A DNA stretch of 64,000 nucleotides from an uncultured Candidatus Saccharibacteria bacterium (GTDB lineage Bacteria; Patescibacteriota; UBA1384; CAILIB01; JAUSJZ01). Shown in pieces: positions 28,418-47,911 of the stretch (positions within the stretch are counted from its first letter, which is position 1; every line of letters starts with the position of its first letter). The DNA lies in contig CAYQWZ010000003.1 in the NCBI GenBank assembly GCA_964421635.1, positions 65,712 to 129,711 on the forward strand. The letters are read 5' to 3'. Under the pieces are notes generated by a model. It did not search any database, had not been told where the DNA came from, and worked only from the letters and a program-made list of their open reading frames with translations. The position numbers and the translations under genes are program-made.

Positions 28418-30202
28418 TTAGGGCAAGAAAAATCTTTTTTTTCTAAAAATTGGGCGGGCCAAAAAATCTGCTAACACGCCGAGCCAAAATAACGGATGCC
28501 AATTAACATAAACCTGCTTTGGCAGGTATTTTCTTTTAAAAGTAAAGTATTGCATAATGGGAATTTCTTGAGAAGCAATTAATCCTAAAGAAAAAATTAG
28601 ACGAGCTTTGTTTTTGTATGACAGTTTTGCTGGACGATTAATTCTCAAATAGCTGCTGCTTTGTATGCCAATGTTTTTGCGCATCATAGATAGGCAGAAA
28701 GATAATGAAAGAGCGGAGTAATCTTGAAATTTTGAATTAAATAAATTACTAAGTGGCAAGTCTTTTGGTTTTATTACTAGCAAGTTCAAGACATCTATAG
28801 CTTTGGGGCCATCTGTAGTGTAGCCGTAAATAATTTGGTCGGGTAGCATGTTTTGTAGCCGTTCTCTAAATTTGTAATCTATTGTGCAATTACTGCCAAA
28901 ACATACTAAGTAGTCGAAAGATAAATTTGCTAGCTGTGAGTTAAGCTCGGTGGCTAAATTAGTAGAACAATTTTTTAAAACTGTATTTGGTGGAAATTGA
29001 GCATCGCGTAGTTGTTTATAAGTGAGATAATTTTGTGGAATGAGAGTCAGTTGGTCTTTTTCAGAATCAAAGCTAAGACTTTGAAGCAGGCAATGAAGCT
29101 GTTTTATGCTGGTTATCGAATGAAGTACATAGTTTATTGCTAGCGAAGTTTTTATAAGATTTGTGGAATTTTGTAAGCTGGCGGAATTTTGAAGATAGAT
29201 TTTGGACGGCTTTTGCGTGGCAATTTTTAGACCATGGCGCCAATTGACCTCAAATTGTTGGGCGGGCGATAAATATTGTGGATGAGCCAGACTGGTAACA
29301 GCTATTGAATGATATTGATCTTGATATTTTTTAATAAATGGAACGACGCACTGCTCAATTAAATTAGTATTTTGAGCATTGTTGATAAATATTAAAGATT
29401 TTATATTTTTATCACTATCTTGAGCCAACATGGCTGTGAGTCTCTGTTTTAGGTGTTGACCAGAACCACTAACAGAAATTAAAAAGGATGACGCAGGCAA
29501 GGTGTAGAAGGATTCATATTTTTTATGAACATACTGTCGGCAGGCTAAAATCTTAGCAAAATGTTGCGTGGTATTTTTTTTAGCTGATGAAACATAGTAG
29601 CGATAAATTGGTTTATCAATAAATTGATAACGAAGTTTGTGAGATAAATTATTTAAATGAAAGTCCCAATCTTCTTCAGAATAGGGAATATCTTTATCCC
29701 AAGGGTTTTTGGGCAAAGCTACTTTCTTTACAGCACAGCAAGTATCAATAGAGCTAATAAGATACAGACTAGAAAAAGATGGTAAATAAGAGTTAAAAAT
29801 AGCCTGATTTGCTTCTATTGATCCAAAATTTAAAGCTTGCCCAAAAACCACCTCAGCTTGGTTATTCATAATTGGAACGACAGTTTCAGAAAAAAAGTTT
29901 GGCAGTAGCTGGTTATCGGCGTCTAAATAGATAATAATCTGACCGCGCGACAATCTCGTTCCCAAGTTCCGCGCGACACTCGGGCTTTGAGCGCTAATGC
30001 GTCTAAATTGAAAATTAACATCTGTAAATTGTCGCATTACTACCTCTGGATTATCTTGAGAATTATCATCAATCAAGACAATTTCATACGCCAATTTAGC
30101 GGTCTGTTTAGTAACGGAATTGATGGCAGTAGCCAAAAACAGCCGGTGATTATGACAAGGAATAACGACACTAATTAAAGGTGGAGTTGTATTATTTGAC
30201 AT
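28418..30202 (-). CDS. Family 2 glycosyltransferase with a large C-terminal domain of unknown function.
   Basis: ISVVIPCHNH...YEIVLIDDNSQD...DADN (GT2 DxD). Confidence 0.7.
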   Translation of the reverse strand: MSNNTTPPLISVVIPCHNHRLFLATAINSVTKQTAKLAYEIVLIDDNSQDNPEVVMRQFTDVNFQFRRISAQSPSVARNLGTRLSRGQIIIYLDADNQLLPNFFSETVVPIMNNQAEVVFGQALNFGSIEANQAIFNSYLPSFSSLYLISSIDTCCAVKKVALPKNPWDKDIPYSEEDWDFHLNNLSHKLRYQFIDKPIYRYYVSSAKKNTTQHFAKILACRQYVHKKYESFYTLPASSFLISVSGSGQHLKQRLTAMLAQDSDKNIKSLIFINNAQNTNLIEQCVVPFIKKYQDQYHSIAVTSLAHPQYLSPAQQFEVNWRHGLKIATQKPSKIYLQNSASLQNSTNLIKTSLAINYVLHSITSIKQLHCLLQSLSFDSEKDQLTLIPQNYLTYKQLRDAQFPPNTVLKNCSTNLATELNSQLANLSFDYLVCFGSNCTIDYKFRERLQNMLPDQIIYGYTTDGPKAIDVLNLLVIKPKDLPLSNLFNSKFQDYSALSLSFCLSMMRKNIGIQSSSYLRINRPAKLSYKNKARLIFSLGLIASQEIPIMQYFTFKRKYLPKQVYVNWHPLFWLGVLADFLARPIFRKKRFFLP

Positions 30203-30898
30203 TCAACCGCTTTGTTTATACTGTTCAATTACTTTTTTAGGGCAACCGTCGGCAATAATTTTACCATTTTTTATGTATATGACGCGAGTTGCTATATTGA
30301 CTAAATTATCTAGCTGATGAGTGGCCAAAATTATAGTGCATTTCTGCTTTCTTAAGGATTCAAATTTCTTAGTCGCTTTGGCTGAAAAATTTTTATCTCC
30401 AACCGAAATAATTTCGTCTAAGCAAATTAATTTAGGATTTCCCATTGTCGCCACCGAATAAGCTAATTTCATGCGCATACCGCTAGAATAATGACTAAGT
30501 GGCTCTTGAATAACATGAGCTAAACCAGAGAATCTAATAATTGAGTCAAGGTGAGCTTTAATCTCCCTTTTTTCTATGCCAATTATGGCGCCAAAGTAAA
30601 AGATATTCTGTACACCGGTTGCTTCATATACCAGATTTTGGGTTAACTCAATAATTGTGCGAGGCATTACTTGCCGTTTAATTAATCCTTTATCTATGTC
30701 TAAAGTGCCGCCAATGGCGCGCAGAAGGGTGGTTTTGCCGCATCCGTTAGGCCCAATGACCCCGATTACTTCTTGCTCAAAAATATCGAAGCTGACCCTG
30801 TCGAGCGCCTTGACGAGCTGACGGCTGCCCTTGCCAGCCTGTGGGGACAGATATTGCTTGGTGACAGAGTTTAGAGTTATTAATGGATTATTCGACAT
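30203..30898 (-). CDS. ABC transporter ATP-binding protein (polysaccharide/teichoic-acid export type).
   Basis: Walker A GPNGCGKTT, signature LSSGMRMKL, Walker B ICLDE. Confidence 0.85.
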   Translation of the reverse strand: MSNNPLITLNSVTKQYLSPQAGKGSRQLVKALDRVSFDIFEQEVIGVIGPNGCGKTTLLRAIGGTLDIDKGLIKRQVMPRTIIELTQNLVYEATGVQNIFYFGAIIGIEKREIKAHLDSIIRFSGLAHVIQEPLSHYSSGMRMKLAYSVATMGNPKLICLDEIISVGDKNFSAKATKKFESLRKQKCTIILATHQLDNLVNIATRVIYIKNGKIIADGCPKKVIEQYKQSG

Positions 30899-31700
30899 CG
30901 TAAACTTTTTTTTGATTTCGCATAAAGAAAAAATTGGTCAAAATTAACAGAACGACAGACATTAGAAAGATTTTAATTAATTTGTCAGAGTCGAATGTAT
31001 TGGTCAGCATTATTTGGCGAAAGCTAGCGAGCATATGTACTAAAGGATTCAAATTGACGAACCATAGTTTGGGTGCAATTAAGGTTGCCGGATAAAAAAT
31101 AGGGGAAGACCAGAACCAAATAGAGAGAATGAACGAAATAAGGTGGCCAAAATCGCGAACGAAAATGTTGATTAAAGAGAAAAACAGACTGAGGGCGTAT
31201 ACAAAAATAAACAGACAGATGGCGAACAGAATAAGAGCCAAAATATTTATCTGTGTTTGCAGCTGAAGAGCGAAGACAATTATTAGTACTACAGCTGTGT
31301 CGGTTAAAAAATCAATAAATTTAACAATGGTATTAGAAAGGGGGAGCAAGAAGAGAGGAAGATAATTATTCTTGACTAATCCTTTATTCATAATGAAAGT
31401 ATTCATTGACTGAATAATAGTACGAGAGACGAAATTCCAGACAGTTAAGCCCGATAATATAATGACGGGCAGCTCTATTGTTTCGGTACCGGGAGCTTTC
31501 AGACCAATTACCTTAACCAAAAAGAAAGAGATGACCAAGGCTTGAATAATTGGGGTCAAGATAATCCATAGCCAACCCAAAACGGTGAATTTGTAGCGGG
31601 AACGGATCTCTTTCTGAGTTAACACAATTAGTCGTTCAAAGTTGATTTTGAACCAGTATTTGCGCGGCGGCGATAAGTGCTTAGTTAATGCTGTAGCCAC
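30888..31700 (-). CDS. ABC-2 type transporter permease (Wzm/TagG-like).
   Basis: Six TM helices. Overlaps the ATPase gene. Typical operon partner. Confidence 0.7.
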   Translation of the reverse strand: MATALTKHLSPPRKYWFKINFERLIVLTQKEIRSRYKFTVLGWLWIILTPIIQALVISFFLVKVIGLKAPGTETIELPVIILSGLTVWNFVSRTIIQSMNTFIMNKGLVKNNYLPLFLLPLSNTIVKFIDFLTDTAVVLIIVFALQLQTQINILALILFAICLFIFVYALSLFFSLINIFVRDFGHLISFILSIWFWSSPIFYPATLIAPKLWFVNLNPLVHMLASFRQIMLTNTFDSDKLIKIFLMSVVLLILTNFFFMRNQKKVYDVE

Positions 31701-31712
31701 ATATAAAGTATA

Positions 31713-33284
31713 TCAAGATGAGGTGGCTTTGGTAATTTTTCTTTTCAATTTTGGGGGTTGGGCGGCGGCGGGCAGAGTTATAACGAAAGATGTTCCAATA
31801 GAATTGTTTTTAGCTTCTATACCGCCGCCGTGCTGTTCAATAATCCATTTTACTAGGGGGAGTCCTAGTCCAGCGCTACCGGCAATGTTTTTAGTTTTTT
31901 TGTCCTGAAAATAAGTGTCGAAGATTTTTTTGTTTGCCGATTTGCTGATTCCGCATCCTTCATCAGCAATAGTGATTTTTACTTGATTCTCAATTTTTTT
32001 AGCCTCAATCGATATTTTAGAATTTTCAGGTGAAAATTTTTGAGCGTTGTCCACCAAATTAATCAAAGCCTCAAAAAAATAGTTGGTATCAATCTCGGTA
32101 TAACAGTTATCTTCTAGTGAAAAAACAATTTTGTGTGATGGAGCAAGAGATTTAATTTCGCCTGACCATGAACGAATCAGTTTTTTAATATTGGTATTTC
32201 GAGGCTGAATTTTAGCTAATTTTGAGTCAATTTTAGTATTTTGCACAATATTATGTACGGTTCTATAGGTAGCGTTGATTATGTTTTCAATATCCTGAAT
32301 ATCCTTTTTTATTAACTTGTTTTTATTTTTTGCAGTTCTGATTTTTGTTTGGGCAATTATTAGAGGGCCTTTAAGACGGTGCGCGACGTCGGATATGAAA
32401 TTCATGTTAGCTTTATGAACTTTTTCTAATTCTAGGTGCTCGAGCTCTTTTCTATTGATCTTGTTGACAATGTCCCAGCTGGCGAAAACAACTAATAGAA
32501 AAAGAAGGATTTTATATGTCAGAAGATTGCTTGGGGCGGCAATAGCAGCTGCTGTAGTAATCGTTAGCAGGGTTGTATAGAAGACAATTTCTTTCGCTAC
32601 AATACGGATGTCGAAGAGTTGGTGTTTATATATTGCAAAAGACAGAACAAGTACAAAAAAGAAGCCTGAGAGAAAAGGAAATGGATAAATACTAATATTA
32701 TATGCAGGCAGAAAAGCTAATGGGCCAATAGTGAATAATATAATAAAAGCTAGATATACAAGTTTGGTTTGGTTGGCAATATTTTTGTTTTTTTGTTTAC
32801 TTTTTTTATAGTGCAAATGTAAATTTCTAAGCATTCCAAGTGTATGAATAGTGAACCATAATAAGAAAATATGATGCCATATTTGAGCTTGTGTATGAAC
32901 ACCCCAAGGATAATAGAATAAGTCTTTTACAAAGTAGTCTGTTCGACTCATTATTAGGAATGTGAATGCTCCAAAATATGAGAAAGGAAGTAATTTACTT
33001 TGATTGTTGAGCTTTGTATAGGCAATACTGAAATGATAAACAAGTGTTGGTATGAAGACGACTCCGAGGTAAATAAATCTATCCCAAAAAATTTGTTGCG
33101 TAGAGAATTCAGATATAAACAACATAAAAGTGCCAAACAGCCATATAACAATTGAGATACTAAAAAAGATAAATATAGAATTTAAATCGTTCTTTCTATT
33201 CTTTTTATAAACAGCTAAAGAGAAAAGCAAAACAAGAATTGCGCTAATTAGTGGAAAGAAATCAGAGGTGTTAAATATTGGCAT
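31713..33284 (-). CDS. Membrane sensor histidine kinase (multi-TM N-terminal sensor).
   Basis: H-box FISDVAHRLKGPL and HATPase_c motifs (LVDNAQKFS...DEGCGI...GSAGLGLPLVK). Confidence 0.8.
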   Translation of the reverse strand: MPIFNTSDFFPLISAILVLLFSLAVYKKNRKNDLNSIFIFFSISIVIWLFGTFMLFISEFSTQQIFWDRFIYLGVVFIPTLVYHFSIAYTKLNNQSKLLPFSYFGAFTFLIMSRTDYFVKDLFYYPWGVHTQAQIWHHIFLLWFTIHTLGMLRNLHLHYKKSKQKNKNIANQTKLVYLAFIILFTIGPLAFLPAYNISIYPFPFLSGFFFVLVLSFAIYKHQLFDIRIVAKEIVFYTTLLTITTAAAIAAPSNLLTYKILLFLLVVFASWDIVNKINRKELEHLELEKVHKANMNFISDVAHRLKGPLIIAQTKIRTAKNKNKLIKKDIQDIENIINATYRTVHNIVQNTKIDSKLAKIQPRNTNIKKLIRSWSGEIKSLAPSHKIVFSLEDNCYTEIDTNYFFEALINLVDNAQKFSPENSKISIEAKKIENQVKITIADEGCGISKSANKKIFDTYFQDKKTKNIAGSAGLGLPLVKWIIEQHGGGIEAKNNSIGTSFVITLPAAAQPPKLKRKITKATSS

Positions 33285-33285
33285 T

Positions 33286-34839
33286 CTAATTATCTGCTAC
33301 TTGTTTGTTAATTAACCTGTTTTTTTTGTGGAGTGGTTTTTCTAAACATGGAAGGACAAGAGAGAAGGTTGTTCCACAATTTTTATTATTGTGTTTAATA
33401 GTACTTTCTACCAATATTTTACCGCCGTGCTGCTCGACGACCCATTTGACAAGGGGTAATCCTAATCCGGCGCTACCAGCAACTGTGGTTTTGTTTTTTC
33501 CTTGATAATGTCGTCGGAAAACTTTTTTCAATTCAGATTTATCTATTCCTGATCCTTCATCGGCAATTGATAGGTAAAGAAGATTAGAATCCTTTTTTAA
33601 TTGAATGGTGATTTTGCTTTTTGGTGGTGAGAATTTTCGAGCGTTATCTATAATGTTGGTTAATGCTTCCAATAGGTAGCCGCGATCTATTGAAGCATGA
33701 CAATTTGGTTCGGTTTGGAAAATTATTTTGTGATCTGGAGCCAAGGATTCTAAGTAAGTGAGTTGATGTTTTAGAAAGTCTGACAAATTGGTTGGCTGTT
33801 TGCGGATTGTTGCCATACCAAAATCAATTTTGCTGTTTTGGACAATGTTCTTTACGGTGTTGGTGGTCGCTAGTGATATTTCAGCGATTCCTTTTAATTC
33901 AGGTTGATAATTCTTTTTATTTTTTATTGCTTTGTTTGCTTTAGTGTTGATAATTACCAAAGGGCCTTTTAAGCGATGAGCGACATCTGAAATAAATTCC
34001 ATGTTAGCCTTGTATTCTCGTTGGAGATTTTTATACTGTGAGATATCTTTTCGGTTTTGTTTAGTTATATCTGTGAGGGCGACAATTGCAATAAAGGTTA
34101 CGAAAAGTTTTGTAAACATGGGAGTTGTGTTAGATAGAATAGTGAATGAAAATAAATGAAAAAAGAGCAATAGGGCAAAAAACTTGATAAGGGAATGATT
34201 GAGCTTGCTATCCTTTGTTTTAAAGGAACTAAAATAAATGAAAATGCTGAATATTAATGATGAGATTGGGCCAATGAAGACTAAATTTTCTTGGCCGACC
34301 AGAGGTAGGTAAAGGTCAGTTGTGCTGGCAATTAATGCAAAAGTGATAAAACCGATAAAAATAAATCGGTTACTAATTTTATTTTTACTATTATCTTTTA
34401 TAACAAATATTATTTGGGCGAGAATAGATACTGCGATGAAGACTGCGTATATATAGGTGAAATTATTAGTATCTGAAATTATTATTCCATTGATAATCTC
34501 TGAGTTAGGGAATATTCCAGGATTAACAGTTACGACAGCTAACAAAAGAGCAATAATACCAATAAGTATTAATATTTTATGATTAATTTTTGCTTTGGTT
34601 GATTGATAAAAAAATAAGAAAGAGGTTAGAGCAATAAATAATCCTGCAGTACCAATTAGTTTTTGGAAAACGTCAATTTCTGTTAAGTAGTACAAGAAAT
34701 ATGTGAAGTTGTACAAGCATAATGATAGCAGTATATATAAATAGTAAAGACGGATTTTATCTTTAATAGAAATTGAGAACGCAAAAGATAAGTGAATTAT
34801 AGCTGTAGAAAGAAGTATTAATTGAACATCACTCATCAA
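33286..34839 (-). CDS. Membrane sensor histidine kinase, tandem paralog of 31713..33284.
   Basis: H-box FISDVAHRLKGPLVI and N/G boxes (IIDNARKFS...DEGSGI...GSAGLGLPLVK). Confidence 0.8.
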   Translation of the reverse strand: MMSDVQLILLSTAIIHLSFAFSISIKDKIRLYYLYILLSLCLYNFTYFLYYLTEIDVFQKLIGTAGLFIALTSFLFFYQSTKAKINHKILILIGIIALLLAVVTVNPGIFPNSEIINGIIISDTNNFTYIYAVFIAVSILAQIIFVIKDNSKNKISNRFIFIGFITFALIASTTDLYLPLVGQENLVFIGPISSLIFSIFIYFSSFKTKDSKLNHSLIKFFALLLFFHLFSFTILSNTTPMFTKLFVTFIAIVALTDITKQNRKDISQYKNLQREYKANMEFISDVAHRLKGPLVIINTKANKAIKNKKNYQPELKGIAEISLATTNTVKNIVQNSKIDFGMATIRKQPTNLSDFLKHQLTYLESLAPDHKIIFQTEPNCHASIDRGYLLEALTNIIDNARKFSPPKSKITIQLKKDSNLLYLSIADEGSGIDKSELKKVFRRHYQGKNKTTVAGSAGLGLPLVKWVVEQHGGKILVESTIKHNNKNCGTTFSLVLPCLEKPLHKKNRLINKQVADN

Positions 34840-34873
34840 TATGAGTGTTAGCAGAAAGTAGATGAAGAATCAA

Positions 34874-35977
34874 TTAACTTTTAGATTTTTTTAGTTGGTT
34901 TGCAACAACCTTGAAGGGTTCGTCGAAAGACTTAATATTGGCGGTATCATCTTGCTTATCAATTTTTGGTTTGATATACGCATACAACTGTGGTTTTTCT
35001 GATTTAAAATATGCTAAATTTTTCTTAATTAATGGCAAATTTGAAGGTGGTAGGCTATTGTTTATTAGTTGCGCCTTAGCTTTTATTAGTTGGAGAGTTA
35101 TATCTGGTGGACCAAGGTTTCCTGTTGCGATAAGAAAATTATTGGTTTGTAGTCTCCTCATCTTTTTTAAAATTGTATTCTTGAGGTGTTTATCAAGATT
35201 TGTTTCAGAAATTATAGCTTGATCAATTAGCTTTGTAATATTATTAGGTTCGGTCAAATGATTAATTTTGCCTTTCTTGTGTATACACCTGATAATTTTA
35301 TTACATAGACGATCTACAGATGTAAAACCCATAAAGCTTGTGAGAAGAGCCACTTCATTATAAGTGTAATTACCACTTTCTCCACCATCAAGAGTAATTA
35401 TTTGTATATCAGAGGATCGTTTTTGTATTATTACAGGTGAAAATATACATAATCCTGGTTTGATTTCAATTACTTTCAACTTGTCACGCAAACCCCTTTG
35501 GAGTAGTAAATTCATTGAAGTAATAATGCCAGCTATGGCAGCTTTATTGATAATTGGTAAATTAGCTTGTTTTTCACCATGTGTAAATGGAATATTAAAC
35601 CCCAAACCACCTGAGCCCGTTGTTCCAATTTGAACATAAGTACATTTTTTCTCTAAAGATGTGAATATTTCAAAAAGATTAGCAAAAAAAGTTATAATTT
35701 TATTTACATCTGCTATTCCATTTTTTGAGCAGATAGTGGCCATGTTAACAGAATTAATTATCAGATCTGGTTTGGTTGATTGAATAATGAATGTTAATTT
35801 TTTATTATCAAAAATGTCATAAAACAAATATTTAACATTGTGCAATTTTCTTTTTACTGAAATGTCTATTACAATAAGGTCGTAGTTATCGACTAGTTTG
35901 GCTGTAAGATTCCTTCCGACAAGGCCATTACCTCCAAACACAAGAGCGGTTTTTTTATGGGTTATATTTTTCAACAT
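34874..35977 (-). CDS. NAD(P)-binding Rossmann-fold protein, function unknown (saccharopine-dehydrogenase/epimerase-like).
   Basis: N-terminal TALVFGGNGLVGRNL (GxxGxxG). The remainder has no clear motif. Confidence 0.4.
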   Translation of the reverse strand: MLKNITHKKTALVFGGNGLVGRNLTAKLVDNYDLIVIDISVKRKLHNVKYLFYDIFDNKKLTFIIQSTKPDLIINSVNMATICSKNGIADVNKIITFFANLFEIFTSLEKKCTYVQIGTTGSGGLGFNIPFTHGEKQANLPIINKAAIAGIITSMNLLLQRGLRDKLKVIEIKPGLCIFSPVIIQKRSSDIQIITLDGGESGNYTYNEVALLTSFMGFTSVDRLCNKIIRCIHKKGKINHLTEPNNITKLIDQAIISETNLDKHLKNTILKKMRRLQTNNFLIATGNLGPPDITLQLIKAKAQLINNSLPPSNLPLIKKNLAYFKSEKPQLYAYIKPKIDKQDDTANIKSFDEPFKVVANQLKKSKS

Positions 35978-35978
35978 T

Positions 35979-37511
35979 ATGTCAACCTACTTTCCATTAA
36001 TACCATATTATTCAAGGAGAGCATATCAAATATTAAAGCAGTCAAAGAATTCTTTTTTTTCCGCGTTAACATATTTTAATGTTGATTTTGCATATAATTA
36101 CATAACAAAATCAACACCAAATGTCATTATTAGAGATGGTGTAATTTCAGAAAGAAAGCTTGGCGAATATATTTGTTTAAAAGTGCCTGCATATAAACGT
36201 TTGTTAAAAGAAAATAGGGTAGATAAACCTGTGATTGATAAAGAAAATTATCTATTAGAAAATGATTTTACTGATATGTTACCAAATGGTGATATTGGTT
36301 ATGCTGATGTGATATCGGTTAGTTCTGGCTCTAGTGGTAAACCATTTTTTTGGCCACGTGGCAAATATCTTGAATTAGAAACGACTATTATCCATGAAAT
36401 ATTATTGAAATATGTGTTTGATATTGATAAAAAACACACATTATTTATTAACGCATATTCTATGGGAATGTATGTTGCTGGTGTTTTTACCAACAATGCA
36501 GTAACAAGAATTGCTGAAAGAGGCTACAATATCAGCATTATTAATCCGGGAATTTCTGAAAAAGATATTATCAGAATAATAAAGGAAATAGGAAGAGCAT
36601 ATGACCAAATTATTATTAGTGGTTACCCGCCTTTTATTTTAGATGTTATAGAAGCTGGTAGAAATGAAGGAATCAAGTGGAAGGAAAAAGATTTGAAATT
36701 TATATTTGGTGCTGAAGCTATTAGTGAAGAATGGAGGAATAATTTATTAAAATTAATCGGAGACACAAATAAATATTTTTCTAGCTTTAATACATATGGT
36801 TCAGCTGATCTTGCTATGCTTGGTCACGAAACACCTTTTAGTATTTTCATTAAAGATCAACTAGTTAAAAACAAACATTTGTATAAAACAATACTAAATT
36901 CCCGTTCAATATCTACATTGGTACAATATCATCCATCATTAAAACACTTTAATGAAAAAAATGGTGAGTTATTTTGCTCAGGGCTCGGTGGAATACCACT
37001 ATATAATTACAATTTACATGATCATGGCTCAGTTTATACCATTGAAGATATGATTGGTCTTTTTGAATCTGTAGGTGTTAATATAATTAAATTAGCAGAA
37101 AAAGAAAATATACCAATTTGGAATCTTCCTTTCGTTGTTCTTTTTGGTAAGAGTGATCAGACAGTTACATTGTATGGTTTAAATGTTTATCCTCAAACAA
37201 TAAGGAAAGCACTTGAATCAAAAGAATTAATTGATTTTGTGACAGCAAGATCTACTATATCAACAGAATATAAGAAAAGAGGGACACAATATTTGAAAGT
37301 AATTGTTGAGTTGAAAAAAGGGGAAAGGGTATCAAATAGTAAAAGGAATAAAATATCTGAAAAAGTATTCCAAATATTATTTGAAGATAATTATGAATAT
37401 AGAACGCTTTATCAAAAAATAGGTGATAAGGCTAAACCAGTTATTAAGCTAGTGATGTATGGTAGGATTGCTGAAAATAGGGGAATAAAACAACAATGGA
37501 TAAAGAGATAA
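35979..37511 (+). CDS. Adenylate-forming enzyme of the ANL superfamily (PaaK/F390-synthetase/CapK-like acyl-CoA ligase). The ORF opens at 35898 but the first ATG is at 35979.
   Basis: Phosphate-binding loop VSSGSSGKPFFWPRG (the SSGTTGKP equivalent) and a YGSAD (YGxTE-like) motif. Confidence 0.55.
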   Translation: MSTYFPLIPYYSRRAYQILKQSKNSFFSALTYFNVDFAYNYITKSTPNVIIRDGVISERKLGEYICLKVPAYKRLLKENRVDKPVIDKENYLLENDFTDMLPNGDIGYADVISVSSGSSGKPFFWPRGKYLELETTIIHEILLKYVFDIDKKHTLFINAYSMGMYVAGVFTNNAVTRIAERGYNISIINPGISEKDIIRIIKEIGRAYDQIIISGYPPFILDVIEAGRNEGIKWKEKDLKFIFGAEAISEEWRNNLLKLIGDTNKYFSSFNTYGSADLAMLGHETPFSIFIKDQLVKNKHLYKTILNSRSISTLVQYHPSLKHFNEKNGELFCSGLGGIPLYNYNLHDHGSVYTIEDMIGLFESVGVNIIKLAEKENIPIWNLPFVVLFGKSDQTVTLYGLNVYPQTIRKALESKELIDFVTARSTISTEYKKRGTQYLKVIVELKKGERVSNSKRNKISEKVFQILFEDNYEYRTLYQKIGDKAKPVIKLVMYGRIAENRGIKQQWIKR

Positions 37512-38599
37512 AAATTTTTGATTGTACAGAAAAAGAGATTCAAAAATATAGTATAAAATATAAGGCACTTGGTTATGAATGGATTGATATAGTTGATGAG
37601 AATATTAGAGAGCTTGAAGAGATATATAAATATCAAGATGAAGCAATTATATTTAATCTGATAAAGAATAAAACCGTATTAGTCGATTATCCATGGTTGA
37701 GGAGTATAGTGAGGATTTGTCCAGAAGGGTATTTCCTCGAGTTACTTTCTTCAAGAAATAGGAATTTAATTAGCTCTAAAGAACAAAAGACACTTAGGAA
37801 GGCAAAGATCTCTGTTGCTGGTTTGAGTGTTGGAAGCAACATCTGTAAAATTATGGCAATGCAAGGTGTGGGAAGAGATTTTAATATTGCTGATTCAGAC
37901 ATCCTATCCTCAACTAATCTAAATAGAGTGAGCGAGAGTATTTTGAATGTTGGAAAGCCAAAGACACTATTAACCAAAAGAAGACTTTTAGAGATCAACC
38001 CTTTTTTAAATATAAATTTATTCAATAGAGGATTGACAATAAAGAATATCACGACATTCATCAGAGGAGCATCTGTTGTTTTTGATGAAATAGATAATTT
38101 AAATTTAAAACTTAAGTTAAGAGAGGCGGCAAAAAATGAGAGAAAACCACTTGTGATGATTACAGATAATGGTGATAACGTTATGGTGGATATTGAAAGG
38201 TATGATACAGACCCAAAACTGATACCTTTTCACGGCTTATTAAATAAGTTTGATCTTGATTTAATAAAAAAAGCAAAAAAGGGACTTAAACCAAGTGAAA
38301 GAGTTAAACTATCGTTGAAAATTGTGCAACCACAAAATGCAGTACCTAAAATGCAAAAATCACTTGTCGATGTTGGAAAAACATTAAACACATGGCCTCA
38401 ATTAGGGACTGCAGCGACACTTGCGGGTGCTGTTGGTTGTATGATTGCTAGAAAAATAATATTAAAAGAAGCACTTGTTTCTGGTAGGCGACACATCTCC
38501 TTAGACGCCGAACTTGAGCCAGGTCATAGAAAAGTAAGGTCAGTTCTGCGTAGACATATTCATACTATGAATTTCAAAAAGAGTTTAGGAAGAAAATGA
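37496..38599 (+). CDS. ThiF/MoeB/E1-like adenylyltransferase family protein with an N-terminal extension of about 100 aa.
   Basis: Rossmann motif ISVAGLSVGSNICKIMAMQGVGRDFNIADSDILSSTNLNRV (GxGxxG...D.D.V..SNLNRQ pattern). Confidence 0.6.
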   Translation: MDKEIKIFDCTEKEIQKYSIKYKALGYEWIDIVDENIRELEEIYKYQDEAIIFNLIKNKTVLVDYPWLRSIVRICPEGYFLELLSSRNRNLISSKEQKTLRKAKISVAGLSVGSNICKIMAMQGVGRDFNIADSDILSSTNLNRVSESILNVGKPKTLLTKRRLLEINPFLNINLFNRGLTIKNITTFIRGASVVFDEIDNLNLKLKLREAAKNERKPLVMITDNGDNVMVDIERYDTDPKLIPFHGLLNKFDLDLIKKAKKGLKPSERVKLSLKIVQPQNAVPKMQKSLVDVGKTLNTWPQLGTAATLAGAVGCMIARKIILKEALVSGRRHISLDAELEPGHRKVRSVLRRHIHTMNFKKSLGRK

Positions 38600-40890
38600 G
38601 TAGTGGTTTATTAATATTAATTATTGGAAGTCTTGCAAATTTAATGCTTGGTTGGTTAGTATTCAGAAATTCAAAAAGAAGATCTATTAAATTGCCTTTC
38701 TTCTTACTGACATTAGCTATTGTATTTTGGGCGATTGCAAATTATATATCAATAGTTGAAGTAAGACCTGAATCTATATTATTTTGGATGAGAACAGTAA
38801 TGAGTTTAGCGGTCTTTCAGTCGGTCTTTTTTTTGCTGTTTGCATTATCATTCCCAGAAGGGTTGCCAAAAAAATATTTTAAAATACTGTCCTATTATTA
38901 CATTCCGTTAGTGTTATTTGCAGTAATATTAACACAGACTAAATTTCTTTTTTCAGGTGTTAATATTGATGATATTACAAATCAAAGAAGTCCTATAATA
39001 CAGCCTGGTATGGTAGTATTTGTTGTTGTAGCAATAGGATCAATATTAGCTGGATTGATTAATCTTATTATCAAATATCGTAAGTTTATAGGTAGAAAAA
39101 GATTGTTAATTGGCTATCTTTTCATTGGGATCTTTATAATGTTCTTTTTATTAATTTTTAATAATTTAATTGTAGTTGTAATTTTTAAATATGATTCATA
39201 TGTTCAACTTGGTCCAATTTATACTTTGCCATTTGTATTAATTACTACCTACGCCATCCTTAAGCACCAGCTCTTCGACATTCGGGTTGTAATTCGGAAG
39301 ATTGTTGTTTACTCAGTTTTGTTGGCGGTGGTATTTGGAGTTTACTCGGGCGTTGTATCCTTATTAACTTCATATTTGCCAATCAACCAAACAATGGGTA
39401 GTCTGGTGGCTGCGCTGTTCATCGCCTTTGGCTTTGATCCTCTAAAAAAGAAGCTAACCGCCACCACTGAAAAATATCTGTTCGTCTCTGAATATAACGA
39501 CGACGAAGAAATCAAAAAACTAAGCTCAACTTTATCAAGTGTCATCGACCTAGACGAAGCACTCAGATCTTTAATGCAAAATGTTATGTCAGCCGTTAAA
39601 CTAGAGCGGGCAGCCACTTTGGTTTTATCGCGCAATGTTGAGCATCCTAATACCAAAGAAGTCGATGATCTACTCAATGAAGAACAGGGCAAAAAAGCCA
39701 AAGAAATTACAGTTAAAAGGATTCAAGAGGTCAATTTCAAAGCGCCCGACCGACTGCTAGGGCCAAGCATGCAGCCGGTAATTGAGTACTTCAACAAAAA
39801 GCCAACCATTCAGCTTTTGCAAACCATGATTCAAGAAGTTGAGGAATCGGAGCTAATTTACCAAAATCTAACCAAAAAAGTTTCCAAAGGACAGCATCTA
39901 GATTTAGCTGAGGGAGGGCGCGTTCTGGCCATTAAGAAAAAGGTGATAGAAGAACTTGAAAGGTTGAAAGTAGCAATTGTCATTCCAATTTTAGTGAAAG
40001 AGCAATTAGTAGGATTAGTCTTCTTCGGTGAAAAACTTTCAAATGACGCATTCTACGAACAGGATTTAAATTTCCTAGGTGTAGTCGGCTCGCAAACAGC
40101 GAACGCTATTGAAAAAGCTCGCTTCTACGAAGAGGACCAATTAAAGAGTGAATTTGTTTCTATTGCTTCGCACGAACTTCTAACTCCAACCGCCGCCATA
40201 GAAGGATACCTGAGCATGATTTTAGAAGAGAAGATGGCTAAGGTTGACCCTAAAGCAGAAGAATATTTATGGAAGGTCTTCAACTCTTCGAAGCGATTAT
40301 CTCGGTTAGTCAAAGATCTATTGTCTGTTTCGCGCATTGAAAGTGGACGCATTAAGGTTGAGTCAAAAGTATTTAATTTAGCAGAAGTTGTCAGCCAGCA
40401 AATGGATCAACTAATGATTAAAGCCAAAGAAGCCAACCTTTATTTGAAAGCCGATCTGCCTAAAATTCCAGCTAATGTTTTTGCCGATCCTGAGCGAGTT
40501 GCCCAAGCGGTCGTAAATTTGGTAGGCAACTCGCTGAAGTACACCAAAGAAGGCGGCGTCACAGTAAAAATTGCCCAAAAACCAAAATTCTACGAAGTGC
40601 AGGTAATAGATACGGGAATTGGTATTTCTCAAGAAGATCGTGAACATCTGTTTCAAAAATTTAGTCGCATCGATAACAAGCAAACGAGCGGTATTGCCGG
40701 CACCGGTCTTGGCTTGTACATTACCAAGTCAATGATAGAATTAATGGGAGGATCAATTTCAGTTCAATCAGAAGTTGGCAAAGGCTCAACCTTTGCGTTC
40801 ACAGTGCCTCGTCAAAATATCCGGAATGTTAAGCTTTCGGCTGGTCAGTCTGAATCCTTAAAAAATAAACAACCTCAAGTAAATAAATAA
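38596..40890 (+). CDS. Membrane sensor histidine kinase (multi-TM N-terminus, central GAF-like region, HisKA plus HATPase_c).
   Basis: H-box FVSIASHELLTPTAAIEGY, N-box VVNLVGNSLKYT, and G-boxes DTGIGI, GTGLGLYI. Confidence 0.8.
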   Translation: MSSGLLILIIGSLANLMLGWLVFRNSKRRSIKLPFFLLTLAIVFWAIANYISIVEVRPESILFWMRTVMSLAVFQSVFFLLFALSFPEGLPKKYFKILSYYYIPLVLFAVILTQTKFLFSGVNIDDITNQRSPIIQPGMVVFVVVAIGSILAGLINLIIKYRKFIGRKRLLIGYLFIGIFIMFFLLIFNNLIVVVIFKYDSYVQLGPIYTLPFVLITTYAILKHQLFDIRVVIRKIVVYSVLLAVVFGVYSGVVSLLTSYLPINQTMGSLVAALFIAFGFDPLKKKLTATTEKYLFVSEYNDDEEIKKLSSTLSSVIDLDEALRSLMQNVMSAVKLERAATLVLSRNVEHPNTKEVDDLLNEEQGKKAKEITVKRIQEVNFKAPDRLLGPSMQPVIEYFNKKPTIQLLQTMIQEVEESELIYQNLTKKVSKGQHLDLAEGGRVLAIKKKVIEELERLKVAIVIPILVKEQLVGLVFFGEKLSNDAFYEQDLNFLGVVGSQTANAIEKARFYEEDQLKSEFVSIASHELLTPTAAIEGYLSMILEEKMAKVDPKAEEYLWKVFNSSKRLSRLVKDLLSVSRIESGRIKVESKVFNLAEVVSQQMDQLMIKAKEANLYLKADLPKIPANVFADPERVAQAVVNLVGNSLKYTKEGGVTVKIAQKPKFYEVQVIDTGIGISQEDREHLFQKFSRIDNKQTSGIAGTGLGLYITKSMIELMGGSISVQSEVGKGSTFAFTVPRQNIRNVKLSAGQSESLKNKQPQVNK

Positions 40891-44547: not shown

Positions 44548-45755
44548 TAAAAAGCGTCAACTAAACCATACATTGGCTGTAATACGGAGACTAATAATAA
44601 GGCGATAGCGATACCCAACACAACCATTATTATAGGTTCTAGAGCGGCTGATAAATTACGGGTGGTGTTGTCAACTTCCTGTTCGTAGAAATTGGCAATC
44701 ACTTTGAAGGATTGATCAAGCGTGCCAGATTTTTCACCAACCTGAGTCAGCTGGGCTACCATATTGGGGAAATACTTACTTTCGCGCAACGCTGAGGCTA
44801 TAGGCATGCCATTTTCTACTTTCTTTTCAATATGTCCTAGCTCTTCCTCTATGGCGTCGTTACCGACTAGCTTTTTAGTAGTGGAGAAGATCTCCAAAAT
44901 TGGTAAGCCAGAAGATAACAACGAAGAAAAGCCGAGACTAAAACGGGCTAGATAGACATGCTTTAAAAGAGTGCCAAAAACTGGAACCCTCATCTTTATC
45001 TTATCCCAAAGTAGCTTGATTTTTTTGACTTTTAAGCCGAAGTGAAAAGCAATAAAACCAAAAATAATAAATAATATTAACCAGAGCCAATATTTAACAG
45101 TGAAGTCTGAAAGTTTAATTAACATTCTAGTGGACATCGGTAAATCTATACCGGCGTCATCGAAAACAGTTTTCAGTCTAGGAATTACAACAATCACAAT
45201 GACAGCAATAACTAACACCATTAAAATAGAGATTATCGCTGGATACATTAAGGCGGAGCGAACCTTGCCTTTAATTTCCGCATCCTTCTGCAGCTGTTTA
45301 GTTATGCGAGCTAAAATTTTATCTAAATTACCCGATTTTTCACCAGCTCGCACCATCTGTATATATACGGAGTCAAATGCTTTAGGATATTTAGATAGCG
45401 CCTCAGAAAGGGGAGCTCCTCCTTCAACCTCAGAAGCAAGGTCGTTAAGCATTTTAGAGATTGGCTTTTTGGTTGACTCAGAATTGATAGATTTTATTGC
45501 ATCTGACACAGACAAACCCGACTTGACCATGACGGCTAGCTGTTCAGTAAGAATTATCTTCTCTCTTAATTTGAGTTTAGTGCTTCCCTCGCCAAATAAG
45601 TCAGAATTAAAAAGTTTGCTGCCTTCTTCAACCGAAAAGATAATTAATTTTCTAGATCTTAATATTTTTCTGGCTTGACCAATTGATTTAGCGTCAATCT
45701 TACCTTTGATTGTCTGCCCATTATTGTCGCGTGCCCGATATTTATAAGTTGGCAT
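44547..45755 (-). CDS. pilC: Type IV pilus platform protein PilC (GspF family).
   Basis: Two T2SS-F domains and three TM helices. About 400 aa. Confidence 0.85.
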   Translation of the reverse strand: MPTYKYRARDNNGQTIKGKIDAKSIGQARKILRSRKLIIFSVEEGSKLFNSDLFGEGSTKLKLREKIILTEQLAVMVKSGLSVSDAIKSINSESTKKPISKMLNDLASEVEGGAPLSEALSKYPKAFDSVYIQMVRAGEKSGNLDKILARITKQLQKDAEIKGKVRSALMYPAIISILMVLVIAVIVIVVIPRLKTVFDDAGIDLPMSTRMLIKLSDFTVKYWLWLILFIIFGFIAFHFGLKVKKIKLLWDKIKMRVPVFGTLLKHVYLARFSLGFSSLLSSGLPILEIFSTTKKLVGNDAIEEELGHIEKKVENGMPIASALRESKYFPNMVAQLTQVGEKSGTLDQSFKVIANFYEQEVDNTTRNLSAALEPIIMVVLGIAIALLLVSVLQPMYGLVDAF

Positions 45756-47911
45756 TAATCTTTAGTTACTCTCCATACTTCTTCTAGTGAGGTAATACCG
45801 TCAATCGCTTTCATTAATCCATCTTGCATCATAGTTGTCATGCCGTCGGCAATGGCTTGAGCAGAAATTTTTGAGTCGTCTGAACTTTGATTAGCAAGTT
45901 CTTTTATAGCGGTGTTGACATCTAAAATTTCAAATAATCCTACTCGGCCTTGGTAGCCAGTGTCGTTACAGACTTCGCAGCCTTTGCCCTTAAAGAAATT
46001 CATTTTGGCGGGCATTTTGTAATCCTTAATTTTGGCTAGCTCTTCTTTAATAGTCTGTAGTTCTTGGGCCGAAGGATTATAACTTTCCTTGCAGTGCTCG
46101 CAAATTTTTCGCGCTAGTCTTTGAGCGATAACTGTATTAACAGATGAAGAAATTAAGAATGGTTCTACACCCATATCTATTAGGCGAGGGAAGGCGCCAG
46201 CGGCGTTGTTGGTGTGTAAAGTAGAGAGCACAATGTGGCCTGTGAGGGCGGATTGAATAGCAATTTCGGCTGTTGGTTTATCACGAATTTCACCAACCAT
46301 AATAATGTCTGGGTCTTGACGCACAATGGCTCGCAATCCATCGGCGAAGTTGTATTTAATGTCGGGGTTGACCTGACTCTGGTTAATTCCCTCAATTCTA
46401 TATTCAATCGGATTTTCTAGAGTCACAATATTTACTCCGACATCCATTAGTTGACCTAAAAGTGCGTACAGGGTGGTAGTTTTGCCAGAACCGGTTGGTC
46501 CGCAAACCAAAGTCATGCCGAAGCTTTTTTTGACATTGTTTTTTACAATATCGTAAGAACGGCCACGCACACCAATTTCTTCCAAAGATAATATTCCTTG
46601 CGATTTGTCGAGTACGCGCATAACTGCTTTTTCGCCGTCTGCTACAGGTAAAATTGAGAGACGAAAGTCAACTCGGTTTTTATCTATCTCTATCATAAAT
46701 CGTCCGTCCTGAGGTAGGCGGTGCTCATCAATTTTTAGGTTGGCAATAATTTTGAGCCTAGCAATTATAGCTGCTTGAATAGTCTTTGGCAGCCTTATTC
46801 GTTCGCGCAGTACACCATCAATCCTAAATCTTATTACCACAGCGTTTTCGTAAGGCTCAACATGAATATCTGATGCCTTCTCCCGCACCGCCCGTCGCAT
46901 TAGTGACAGTACAATTTTGGAGGTAGGAGAATCTTCACCTGAAGTTTCCACATTTTCGTTCTGGGCTTGGGCAATCTCTTTTTTAGAAATTTCTAAGTCA
47001 GTATCTTTAATGACCGTTTCAACTTCTTTCTCCAAGCCTGAATATTGGTTTAAAATTCGATTGATATCTTCGGTGGTGGCCAAAACAGGCACTACATCGC
47101 GGCCAGTGCTTTTTTTAATCAGCTGAACTATCTCTAAGTTTTCAGGATCAACCATAGCCACTGTAATGGTGTTTTTGTCGGCTTCTATGGGGGCGGCTTT
47201 GTGACGGCGAGCGAAAAGTTCAGGCAAAATATTTAAGATTTTTTTGTCAACCTTAATATTAGATAAATCTTTGTAGCTAATAGTTTTTGGCTTGATAGCT
47301 TGCCTAAATTGGCTAGTTTGGGTTTTGGCGTCTACGGTTATAGGATCGCGTTTCTTAAATTTATCAAACAGAATCAATAGATTCGGCGATTTTTTATTTT
47401 GTTCCGTCTTCACTGTTTCTGCTGTTGCTGGTTCTGTCGCTGTCTCAGCAGGCGCTGCTGCTTCAATGATATCTTCTTTCAGCTCAGTGTCAGCTTCAAA
47501 CTCAGCCACATTAACACCATCGCCAGCTTGATTTTCGCCTGCCTGAATTTGATCAACTTCATCTGGCGGAGCACTCATCACTTGGCCATCTTTGTCGTAA
47601 CGAGTAGCGACTTTATGCAAAGTGCCACGACGGATTTCCACCGCATTTCTAAATTTGTCGGCCGGTTTAAACTTAACAACTTTTGTTGGAAGGATTAATA
47701 TCTGATGACCGCGACCCTGCGGGTCAGGCACCGATTTAGAAGGATAGTGGTGAATCTTGAAACGACCAAAATTGGTAATATTAACAACCTCACCTTTATT
47801 AAGGCTGCCGGCAATAACATTTGAGATCTCGTTTATTATTTTCCTAGAACGAGCTAAAGATAGCCCTGACCGCTGGGCTACTAAATTATAAACATCGGAT
47901 GTTTTTAGCAT
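45755..47911 (-). CDS. pilB: Type IV pilus assembly ATPase PilB (GspE family) with an N-terminal HU/IHF-fold domain fusion.
   Basis: Walker A GPTGSGKTT, a T2SSE_N domain, and a C-terminal CxxC zinc motif. N-terminal residues 1-95 align to HU (VNITNFGRFKIHHYPSKSVPDPQGRGHQILILPTKVVKFKPADKFRNAV versus the HU consensus GFGTFEVRxRAARTGRNPQTGEEIKIPAxKVPxFKAGKALKDAV). Confidence 0.85.
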   Translation of the reverse strand: MLKTSDVYNLVAQRSGLSLARSRKIINEISNVIAGSLNKGEVVNITNFGRFKIHHYPSKSVPDPQGRGHQILILPTKVVKFKPADKFRNAVEIRRGTLHKVATRYDKDGQVMSAPPDEVDQIQAGENQAGDGVNVAEFEADTELKEDIIEAAAPAETATEPATAETVKTEQNKKSPNLLILFDKFKKRDPITVDAKTQTSQFRQAIKPKTISYKDLSNIKVDKKILNILPELFARRHKAAPIEADKNTITVAMVDPENLEIVQLIKKSTGRDVVPVLATTEDINRILNQYSGLEKEVETVIKDTDLEISKKEIAQAQNENVETSGEDSPTSKIVLSLMRRAVREKASDIHVEPYENAVVIRFRIDGVLRERIRLPKTIQAAIIARLKIIANLKIDEHRLPQDGRFMIEIDKNRVDFRLSILPVADGEKAVMRVLDKSQGILSLEEIGVRGRSYDIVKNNVKKSFGMTLVCGPTGSGKTTTLYALLGQLMDVGVNIVTLENPIEYRIEGINQSQVNPDIKYNFADGLRAIVRQDPDIIMVGEIRDKPTAEIAIQSALTGHIVLSTLHTNNAAGAFPRLIDMGVEPFLISSSVNTVIAQRLARKICEHCKESYNPSAQELQTIKEELAKIKDYKMPAKMNFFKGKGCEVCNDTGYQGRVGLFEILDVNTAIKELANQSSDDSKISAQAIADGMTTMMQDGLMKAIDGITSLEEVWRVTKD

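Follow-up and report, generated by a model that had tools for sequence, protein, structure and literature searches.

ThiF-type oxazolone synthetases were discovered between 2021 and 2025 in Proteobacteria and mycolic-acid Actinobacteria, always together with an acyl-CoA N-acyltransferase. The described systems are the tyrazolone/phenazolone synthetases TyzACB of Mycobacterium tuberculosis and OxzAB of Pseudoalteromonas rubra (PMC10404671; bioRxiv 10.1101/2020.06.11.147165), and TrzAS (Rv1356c/Rv1355c) of M. tuberculosis and its relatives (PMC12856293). In the TrzAS system, the acyltransferase TrzA (Rv1356c) makes N-acyl-L-tryptophan, which TrzS (Rv1355c), a cyclase fused to a flavin oxidase, turns into N-acyl tryptazolone by ATP-dependent cyclisation and O2-dependent desaturation, and a D217A mutation abolishes the cyclisation (PMC12856293, JBC 2025). 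OxzB is regarded as the sole ThiF-like enzyme known to act on a small molecule by a 2025 review (PMC12596934). Here, a locus is described from a 64,000-nucleotide stretch of contig CAYQWZ010000003.1 (the window), which derives from an uncultured Candidatus Saccharibacteria bacterium of the candidate phyla radiation (CPR). The locus encodes a ThiF-like cyclase, a ligase with a PaaK-like fold (LIG), an NAD(P)-binding reductase (RED) and a two-component sensor, and we judge it slightly better than an even bet that these form an oxazolone-synthetase-like small-molecule pathway in an undescribed layout, hard-wired to the sensor.

The plus-strand operon begins with LIG (510 aa; open reading frame (ORF) 35898..37511), whose likely start, ATG 35979, is the one chosen by the gene caller on four public contigs with identical proteins. 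LIG overlaps by 16 nt with the gene for a stand-alone ThiF-like ATP-dependent cyclase of the TrzS (Rv1355c) subfamily (37496..38599, plus strand, 367 aa), the stop of which overlaps by 4 nt with the start of a 764-aa sensor histidine kinase (38596..40890, plus strand) composed of HisKA_7TM, GAF, HisKA and HATPase_c domains. After a gap of 2 nt, a REC-only receiver (PF00072; 40893..41381, plus strand) forms the last gene of the operon. RED (34874..35977, minus strand, 367 aa by ORF translation) is divergent from LIG, and the two start codons lie 1 nt apart on opposite strands (35975..35981, CAT t ATG), so that each promoter and ribosome-binding region must lie within the coding sequence of the other gene. 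A promoter and terminator scan of 28-42 kb returned counts equal to the shuffled expectation. The three genes, their divergent layout and overlap, and the flanking kinases, receiver, family 2 glycosyltransferase (GT2) and ABC-2 transporter had been described in a sequence-only reading of the same DNA, and all are borne out by the ORFs and domain matches.

The cyclase matches the NCBIfam model NF005901, the Rv1355c family, with E=1.1e-82 and 278 bits (residues 30-347 on model positions 36-346 of 722), so that its likeness to TrzS is read from this model rather than from a direct TrzS alignment, and the second-best NCBIfam family reaches only 78 bits. In contrast, the models of the housekeeping enzymes are far from their cut-offs (TcdA 37 of 304 bits, MoeB 62 of 266 bits, ThiF 67.5 of 159 bits), so that this is not a plain TcdA- or MoeB-type enzyme, an identity that the sequence-only reading had named as one that would refute it. 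Pfam recognises a ThiF domain only at residues 86-220, in which the glycine motif reads AGLSVGS (G109..G113) and is followed by TNLNR, which had been quoted as SNLNR. Eight residues that align with the adenylation residues of E. coli ThiF are invariant in 39 homologues (R87, G109, G113, D133, N141, R144, K156 and D200), and D200 is, from its position, the probable counterpart of TrzS D217. Neither a conserved cysteine nor a Zn-binding CxxC is found in the alignment of these 39 homologues. By its sequence, the cyclase is thus assignable to the oxazolone-synthetase cyclase family (OxzB/TyzB/TrzS), and the impression that the combination has no described relative gives way to a kinship with enzymes whose substrates are small N-acyl amino acids rather than ubiquitin-like proteins or peptides. 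TrzS is the closer relative in this family, with which the window cyclase shares the NF005901 match, the N-terminal domain and the adenylation residues, whereas TyzB and OxzB were placed by their authors in a sub-cluster apart from TrzS, and TyzB, with 318 aa, is too short to carry the long N-terminal domain of the window cyclase.

This N-terminal extension was put at about 100 residues by the sequence-only reading; it exists, but comprises about 65-70 extra residues, the N-terminal domain as a whole having about 85, and, since the NF005901 alignment covers it, is a trait of the TrzS subfamily. The AlphaFold model of the cyclase (predicted local distance difference test score, pLDDT, 93) contains an E1 core, and the best solved fold matches, namely AclA (9egb), ThiF, PaaA, MoeB, MccB and TcdA, span about 250-275 columns, which is the core only, so that the N-terminal domain with its predicted beta-alpha-beta-alpha-alpha-beta-beta-alpha topology stays uncovered. 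This topology differs from that of the canonical RiPP recognition element (RRE; RiPP, ribosomally synthesised and post-translationally modified peptide). The extension, being common to TrzS, provides no evidence for the RRE-like or peptide-binding domain that had been suggested. The nearest solved structure is AclA of Tenacibaculum discolor (PDB 9egb/9egc, released in 2025 'in complex with substrate'), with E=3e-9 by sequence and E=2e-13 by fold, and a literature search found no paper describing it. An identity as an anti-phage E1-E2 or CBASS Cap2-like protein was considered and rejected, as PADLOC E1-E2 matches to the cyclase reach at most 45 bits and are confined to the Rossmann core; RED and LIG have no PADLOC matches.

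The conservation of the module was assessed by a scan of one genome per GTDB species with a 12-sequence alignment as query, which yielded 69 loci (numbered with the prefix L below), and the counts that follow depend on hidden Markov models (HMMs) built from the sequences of this analysis, with which the loci were annotated. Cyclase homologues are found mostly in CPR bacteria (Patescibacteria), with some in Actinobacteria, and the lineages carrying a locus include Saccharibacteria, Wolfebacteria, Magasanikbacteria, Doudnabacteria, Liptonbacteria, Berkelbacteria, Nealsonbacteria, Wildermuthbacteria, Lloydbacteria and Paceibacteria, as well as Streptomyces, Gordonia and Millisia. In 59 of the 69 loci, LIG is found at most 3.5 kb away from the cyclase; of the ten others, seven are truncated by the end of a contig. 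At least 59 of the 69 have a nitroreductase-type flavin-dependent oxidase (FDO), mostly encoded immediately downstream of the cyclase and in some cases fused to it, and 48 have a histidine kinase gene downstream on the strand of the cyclase. The canonical operon hence reads LIG - cyclase - FDO - 7TM (seven-transmembrane) kinase, with REC-only genes nearby in many loci, and its LIG-cyclase-FDO order parallels that of trzA-trzS and oxzA-oxzB. On annotated contigs with cyclases of 36-62% identity, including that of Gordonia, an unannotated protein of about 470-510 aa is encoded directly upstream of the ThiF gene, and the flanking genes differ between the CPR lineages that carry the module. All genes adjoining the window cyclase are accounted for as reductase, ligase or kinase, and no acyltransferase family occurs among the neighbours in any annotated related locus, as judged by the Pfam families of the neighbouring genes. 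The co-conservation of the three genes in their relatives' neighbourhoods supports the earlier proposal of a functional unit.

Gene fusions tie the same enzymes together. A cyclase profile search of 1.84 billion representative sequences returned 1318 cluster representatives at E<=1e-30, and the best 150 of these divide into stand-alone cyclases (about two-thirds) and cyclase-FDO fusions (about one-third). The cyclase-FDO fusions of the CPR loci L018 and L023 match NF005901 over its full length with 451-453 bits, and in L011 a split FDO corresponds to the C-terminal half of this model; going by these alignments, the complete TrzS architecture is present in CPR bacteria. LIG is fused to the cyclase in the 863-aa protein P0361 (37% identity to the window LIG, E=7e-108), in an in-frame ORF of 893 codons in L044, and in the 1242-aa protein P0374 (L085, 7001..10729), where an amino-acid dehydrogenase of the ELFV (Glu/Leu/Phe/Val) type is joined to both. 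In the 924-aa protein P0330 (L084, 153..2927), the cyclase is fused to an aromatic amino-acid lyase (PF00221, 568 bits), and the loci of P0374 and P0330 also hold an FDO and a HisKA_7TM kinase. In L085, an alpha/beta hydrolase gene lies between the P0374 fusion and the kinase. The Streptomyces loci consist of LIG - cyclase - FDO without a kinase, their divergent FDOs being detected by a 46-sequence FDO HMM and Pfam. One of them, L066 of Streptomyces sp. NPDC018019 (5030..11949), carries genes for a flavin-dependent tryptophan halogenase (PF04820, 240 bits) and for a P450 just before LIG-cyclase-FDO; it has the look of a small natural-product cluster, the product of which might be a halogenated oxazolone derived from Trp.

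LIG matches no Pfam family and is not a PaaK equivalog, as it scores 30.3 bits against TIGR02155 with a cut-off of 646.3. Its AlphaFold model (pLDDT 89.7) is matched by Foldseek with E=3e-18 to BT_0428 and PaaK1/PaaK2 (4r1m/2y27), with further matches to 2-hydroxyisobutyryl-CoA ligase, ClxA and the amide synthetase McbA, and the profile of the family finds the PaaK structures with E=1.5e-12. LIG carries VSSGSSGKPFFWPRG, as the sequence-only reading had quoted, and the invariants of the family comprise the SSGSxG loop (S115, S116, G117, S118, G120), W125, R127 and the C-terminal K504, which would be the catalytic lysine. Judged from the model, LIG clearly represents a divergent family with the PaaK-like, two-domain fold of the adenylate-forming (ANL) superfamily. 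With PaaK and PaaK-like ligases (PDB 2y27, 2y4o, 4r1l; ClxA 9s3l) it shares this fold and the P-loop-like SSGSSGKP motif, but it is only 14-17% identical to them, its 510 aa exceed the solved chains (423-435 aa) by about 70-80 residues, and it is always paired with the cyclase and not with paa catabolic genes. Some enzymes with ANL and PaaK-like folds form amides or esters independently of CoA. It is proposed that LIG makes an N-acyl amino acid, because its gene stands in the operon where that of TrzA or OxzA would be expected, LIG-cyclase fusions exist in several lineages, no acyltransferase is encoded nearby, and CoA-independent amide formers are known in its superfamily.

RED has an N-terminal GGNGLVG Rossmann motif with a weak Pfam Epimerase match (residues 11-121), Epimerase/RmlD similarity being limited to the N-terminus, and a profile search of the PDB likewise matches the Rossmann N-terminus only. 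Its family is small (65 matches) and mostly from CPR bacteria, nearly all members, RED included, carry a precomputed PF27054 annotation ('Beta_methylindole_red_C') after the Rossmann N-terminus, and the family alignment contains a strongly conserved GTTGSGGLGFNIPFTHG...K motif. The namesake of PF27054 is Ind2, an NADH-dependent 2-oxo-acid reductase that converts the arylpyruvate 3-methyl-indolepyruvate to the 2-hydroxy acid indolmycenic acid, which Ind3/Ind6 couple in an ATP-dependent manner to an amine partner to yield the oxazolinone ring of indolmycin (PMC8246080). If the annotation holds, the window would resemble Ind2/Ind3 in combining an NAD(P)H reductase of the PF27054 type and an enzyme for ATP-dependent coupling. 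The indolmycin pathway has no ThiF-like cyclase (PMC8246080), and Ind1 and Ind4-7 are absent here.

RED adjoins LIG in the window, in L005, L008, L009, L013, L014, L015, L021 and L078, and weakly in L041. The RED|LIG-cyclase-kinase layout recurs in at least nine other loci from different organisms with 39-62% cyclase identity, hence the association is far beyond chance. In a neighbour-joining tree, which serves as a rough guide only, the cyclases of the window, L005, L008, L009, L013, L014, L015 and L078 form one clade, and in all eight loci RED is divergent from LIG and a kinase follows the cyclase. A search with the FDO HMM with filters off found no FDO in the 64-kb window at E<=10 and none in the loci of this RED-linked clade. 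L021 and L041, which lie outside it, contain both RED and FDO. RED is a lineage-specific accessory in place of which most relatives carry the nitroreductase-type FDO, and the sub-clade of the window has lost the FDO. The gene for a distant PF27054 protein of 562 aa shows translational coupling to that of an AMP-binding ligase in a gammaproteobacterial metagenome-assembled genome (L082, 5445..8689), with a PP-binding/AMP-binding/acyltransferase gene and pyruvate:ferredoxin-oxidoreductase-like genes in the vicinity, which hints at a more general reductase-ligase pairing.

The kinase downstream of the cyclase is of a uniform type: all ten sampled have HisKA_7TM, HisKA and HATPase_c domains, and the 7TM architecture also occurs in L084 and L085. 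The link to the adjacent kinase that the sequence-only reading proposed thus extends over the 48 loci with a same-strand kinase. As this conserved linkage shows, the 7TM kinase and the receiver are functionally coupled to the pathway, whose product they would sense or whose output they would control. The receiver lacks an output domain and ends in an Ala/Pro/Glu-rich low-complexity tail of about 40 residues (...APVAPAEPAVPEPPVEPAVPKNSTEPPVN), which is unusual for a CheY-like receiver. In the RED-linked clade, the operon abuts a type IV pilus cluster (PilM was detected in the window, L005, L008, L009 and L015), and the pilus is, speculatively, a possible output of the receiver. The two papers found to name the HisKA_7TM domain give no ligand for it. 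A bolder proposal, which we hold only tentatively and think rather unlikely as a whole, is that the product of the module, a small N-acyl amino acid or oxazolone of amphiphilic or aromatic character, is the cognate ligand of the HisKA_7TM kinase, in a CPR-wide circuit of the autoinducer or host-cue type that in the window clade would act on the type IV pilus through the CheY-like receiver.

The pathway that we favour would proceed as follows. An N-acyl amino acid would first be made by LIG, which would adenylate a carboxylic acid and pass the acyl group on to an amino acid at its amino group, thereby taking the place of the acyl-CoA-dependent N-acyltransferase (OxzA/TyzA/TrzA) of the described systems. 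The cyclase would then, as its close homology to TrzS predicts, adenylate the carboxylate of the N-acyl amino acid, so that the amide oxygen closes the 5(4H)-oxazolone ring, and in most relatives the FDO of the nitroreductase superfamily would desaturate the ring substituent. In the RED clade, RED would most likely reduce an amino-acid-derived 2-oxo acid, e.g., an arylpyruvate, to the 2-hydroxy acid partner. The 7TM kinase might be a sensor of the product, by way of its 7TM domain or, in the RED clade, its GAF domain, or else a regulator of the pathway. To build an oxazolone out of an acid and an amino acid, two carboxylates have to be activated, the first to form the amide and the second to close the ring, and the gene order of the module, with two ATP-dependent carboxylate-activating enzymes, follows the same sequence. 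The accessory enzymes (the Ind2-like reductase, the ELFV dehydrogenase and the aromatic amino-acid lyase) act, or plausibly act, on amino or 2-oxo acids, which suggests a deaminated amino-acid acyl partner, that is a 2-oxo acid, a 2-hydroxy acid or an aryl-acrylate; such a partner fits a phenylacetate-ligase-like LIG, and the tryptophan halogenase of Streptomyces is consistent with the amino-acid theme.

Several points weigh against this pathway. The window cyclase, with 278 bits, misses the whole-protein cut-off of NF005901 (476 bits), although this is because half of the model, the FDO half, is absent, the protein ending where the FDO would begin. The best structural matches of LIG are CoA ligases, and its acceptor, amine or CoA, is unreadable from the sequence. 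The functions of the LIG and RED families, neither of which has a characterised member, are assigned by homology and gene context, and the putative membership of RED in PF27054 (Ind2-type) derives from a precomputed annotation. The RED invariants do not form the classical Ser-Tyr-Lys triad of short-chain dehydrogenases/reductases (SDRs), with no obvious Tyr-x-x-x-Lys. The conserved adjacency of the kinase shows coupling, not sensing of the product. A saturated 5(4H)-oxazolone (azlactone) is hydrolytically labile, and as the RED clade has no FDO, its final product may differ, with the azlactone being an intermediate or an acyl donor.

The last possibility leads to the alternative that survives best, yet to which we give only a small share of our belief, namely that the enzymes do cooperate, but that a reactive azlactone or adenylate serves as acyl donor to a surface glycan, lipid or protein, or that RED reduces the product to an aldehyde, with export by the ABC-2 transporter and GT2. 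Saturated 5(4H)-oxazolones are good acylating agents, and the FDO is missing not only from the window but from the whole RED-linked clade; the RED N-terminus resembles extended SDRs, a class which includes thioester-reducing R domains. The string of minus-strand genes runs on without real gaps past RED into two paralogous multi-TM (multiple transmembrane segments) histidine kinases directly downstream of it (31713..33284 and 33286..34839, minus strand; 46% identical over the kinase core), the contiguous ABC-2 permease and ABC ATPase (30203..31700, minus strand) and the GT2 glycosyltransferase (28418..30202, minus strand). However, GT2 and ABC-2, which the sequence-only reading had noted next to the kinases, are kept only in the closest relative L005 and are absent from L008, L009, L013-L015 and L078, hence they are best seen as peripheral. 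The two minus-strand kinases, with one counterpart in L005 and one kinase plus REC in L008, may share the regulatory unit of RED, LIG and cyclase, but are conserved in close relatives only. Moreover, RED is transcribed divergently and its putative homologue Ind2 acts before ligation, not after it, the lyase and amino-acid dehydrogenase fusions elsewhere indicate substrate supply, and the lack of an obvious Tyr-x-x-x-Lys in RED does not favour a reduction of the SDR type.

Only a little less probable is that LIG is an ordinary aryl- or acyl-CoA ligase whose acyl-CoA product would be used by an OxzA/TyzA/TrzA-type N-acyltransferase encoded at another, unlinked locus, with the remaining steps as in the described oxazolone systems. 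The top fold and profile matches are indeed CoA ligases (PaaK1/2, BT_0428 and 2-hydroxyisobutyryl-CoA ligase), and the described oxazolone systems use acyl-CoA. Yet an acyltransferase gene lies beside none of the annotated loci, LIG itself sits in the acyltransferase slot of the operon and is fused to the cyclase in at least three cases, and the match to the PaaK equivalog amounts to only 30 bits against the required 646.

It is improbable that the cyclase modifies the C-terminus of a peptide or protein, either in RiPP-type chemistry as MccB and PaaA or as an E1 for a ubiquitin-like protein, in which case the N-terminal domain would act as an RRE or as a clamp for the peptide. The fold matches do include PaaA and MccB, and the N-terminal domain lies outside their coverage, but this domain is common to TrzS, whose substrate is N-acyl-Trp, no cysteine is conserved, and the PADLOC E1-E2 matches concern the Rossmann core alone. 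The window contains no precursor-sized free ORF, all ORFs of at least 20 aa in 34800..38650 being nested within RED, LIG or the cyclase, and no gene for a ubiquitin-like protein, E2, JAB or YcaO, in agreement with the sequence-only reading as to precursor, ubiquitin-like and YcaO genes, and across the 69 loci no short ORF or ubiquitin-like gene co-varies with the module. A candidate precursor peptide in L011, a called 40-aa gene (7872..7994) between LIG and the cyclase, was rejected because its sequence (...LRYAILAPSTYNN; ...YAILAPSTYNN) corresponds to the N-terminal part of a nitroreductase; the presence of a complete nitroreductase gene after the L011 cyclase suggests that a past rearrangement left the fragment behind. 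Finally, that a housekeeping enzyme of the TcdA/MoeB/ThiF type, a catabolic phenylacetate-CoA ligase and a sugar-nucleotide epimerase are neighbours by chance is what their public names would imply ('tRNA A37 threonylcarbamoyladenosine dehydratase', 'molybdopterin/thiamine biosynthesis adenylyltransferase', 'phenylacetate-CoA ligase' and 'nucleoside-diphosphate-sugar epimerase'), but this is the least credible explanation and is effectively refuted by the neighbourhood and fusion data, as every equivalog cut-off is missed widely, the genes are translationally coupled, and the adjacency is kept across many CPR lineages and Actinobacteria despite differing flanks.

The oxazolone-synthetase-like pathway thus has to be set against the systems from which it departs. 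Like TrzAS, the module has the gene for its first-step enzyme directly upstream of the cyclase, and its CPR relatives carry the FDO, fused or adjacent. In contrast to TrzAS, the first step in the window is assigned to a PaaK-fold ATP-dependent ligase rather than to the acyl-CoA N-acyltransferase TrzA, the cyclase is stand-alone, the FDO is absent, a putative Ind2-like reductase is present, and a 7TM kinase and REC are co-transcribed; the hosts also differ, being mycolic-acid actinobacteria for TrzAS and a CPR bacterium here. Since the window locus lacks both the FDO and the N-acyltransferase, two defining features of oxazolone synthetases, it should not be filed as a TrzAS orthologue. With OxzAB and TyzACB, it would share the course of the pathway, in which an N-acyl amino acid is cyclised to an oxazolone by an ATP-dependent ThiF-type enzyme and may then be desaturated by a flavin enzyme, but those systems depend on an acyltransferase and have no kinase linkage. 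TcdA, ThiF and MoeB have in common with the window cyclase the E1-like Rossmann core and ATP-dependent carboxylate activation, and TcdA, the tRNA ct6A dehydratase, also forms an oxazolone ring; the window cyclase differs from them in having no ubiquitin-like partner, conserved Cys or Zn site, and in its conserved neighbourhood. A ligase partner, CPR bacteria or a kinase link are not mentioned in the papers on the oxazolone systems or in the 2025 review of ThiF-like enzymes, and among the papers listed by a literature search none joined 'oxazolone' with CPR terms. Neither the Cell 2023 paper on CPR genetics nor the PNAS 2024 perspective contains ThiF or kinase terms, and the Cell paper also has no mention of nitroreductase or phenylacetate.

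The remainder of the window is ordinary chromosome, with genes for DnaE, GltX, malic enzyme, Dus, DnaX, DnaB, GroEL and NAD salvage, and the type IV pilus cluster. The G+C content is 0.30-0.33 over 32000..38000, a region comprising the minus-strand kinases, RED, LIG and the cyclase (about 0.30 at 34-38 kb), compared with about 0.40 in the rest, which could mean foreign origin or just composition. In the pilus cluster, PilB (T2SSE and MshEN domains; 45755..47911, minus strand) has an N-terminal HU-type DNA-binding domain (PF00216, E=2e-14), a fusion that is also found in two related CPR loci, L005 and L009, and that could tie the pilus motor to DNA, e.g., for DNA uptake. A 708-aa protein (50887..53013, minus strand) has a palmitoyl-thioesterase/alpha-beta-hydrolase domain and a weak LGFP-repeat match, and its gene coincides with a local G+C peak of 0.51, the highest of the window.

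CPR bacteria have a very limited biosynthetic capacity, hence a conserved pathway dedicated to a small molecule is unexpected in them. The scope of the ThiF-type oxazolone synthetases is widened by a related module that is widespread in the CPR and has an ATP-dependent ligase in the place of the acyltransferase. The modular accessories, namely the Ind2-like reductase, the lyase, the dehydrogenase and, in Streptomyces, the halogenase and P450, suggest a family of distinct but related products that could be reached by genome mining. What appears to be new is the CPR-wide coupling of such a dedicated pathway to a sensor kinase, with a chemistry and a signalling role that we infer, and the fixed linkage to the 7TM kinase provides a concrete and testable hypothesis of chemical signalling in CPR bacteria. 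If the product is indeed the ligand of the kinase, this would be the first system of a self-made chemical signal to be proposed for these ultrasmall episymbionts, and the first ligand for the HisKA_7TM domain.

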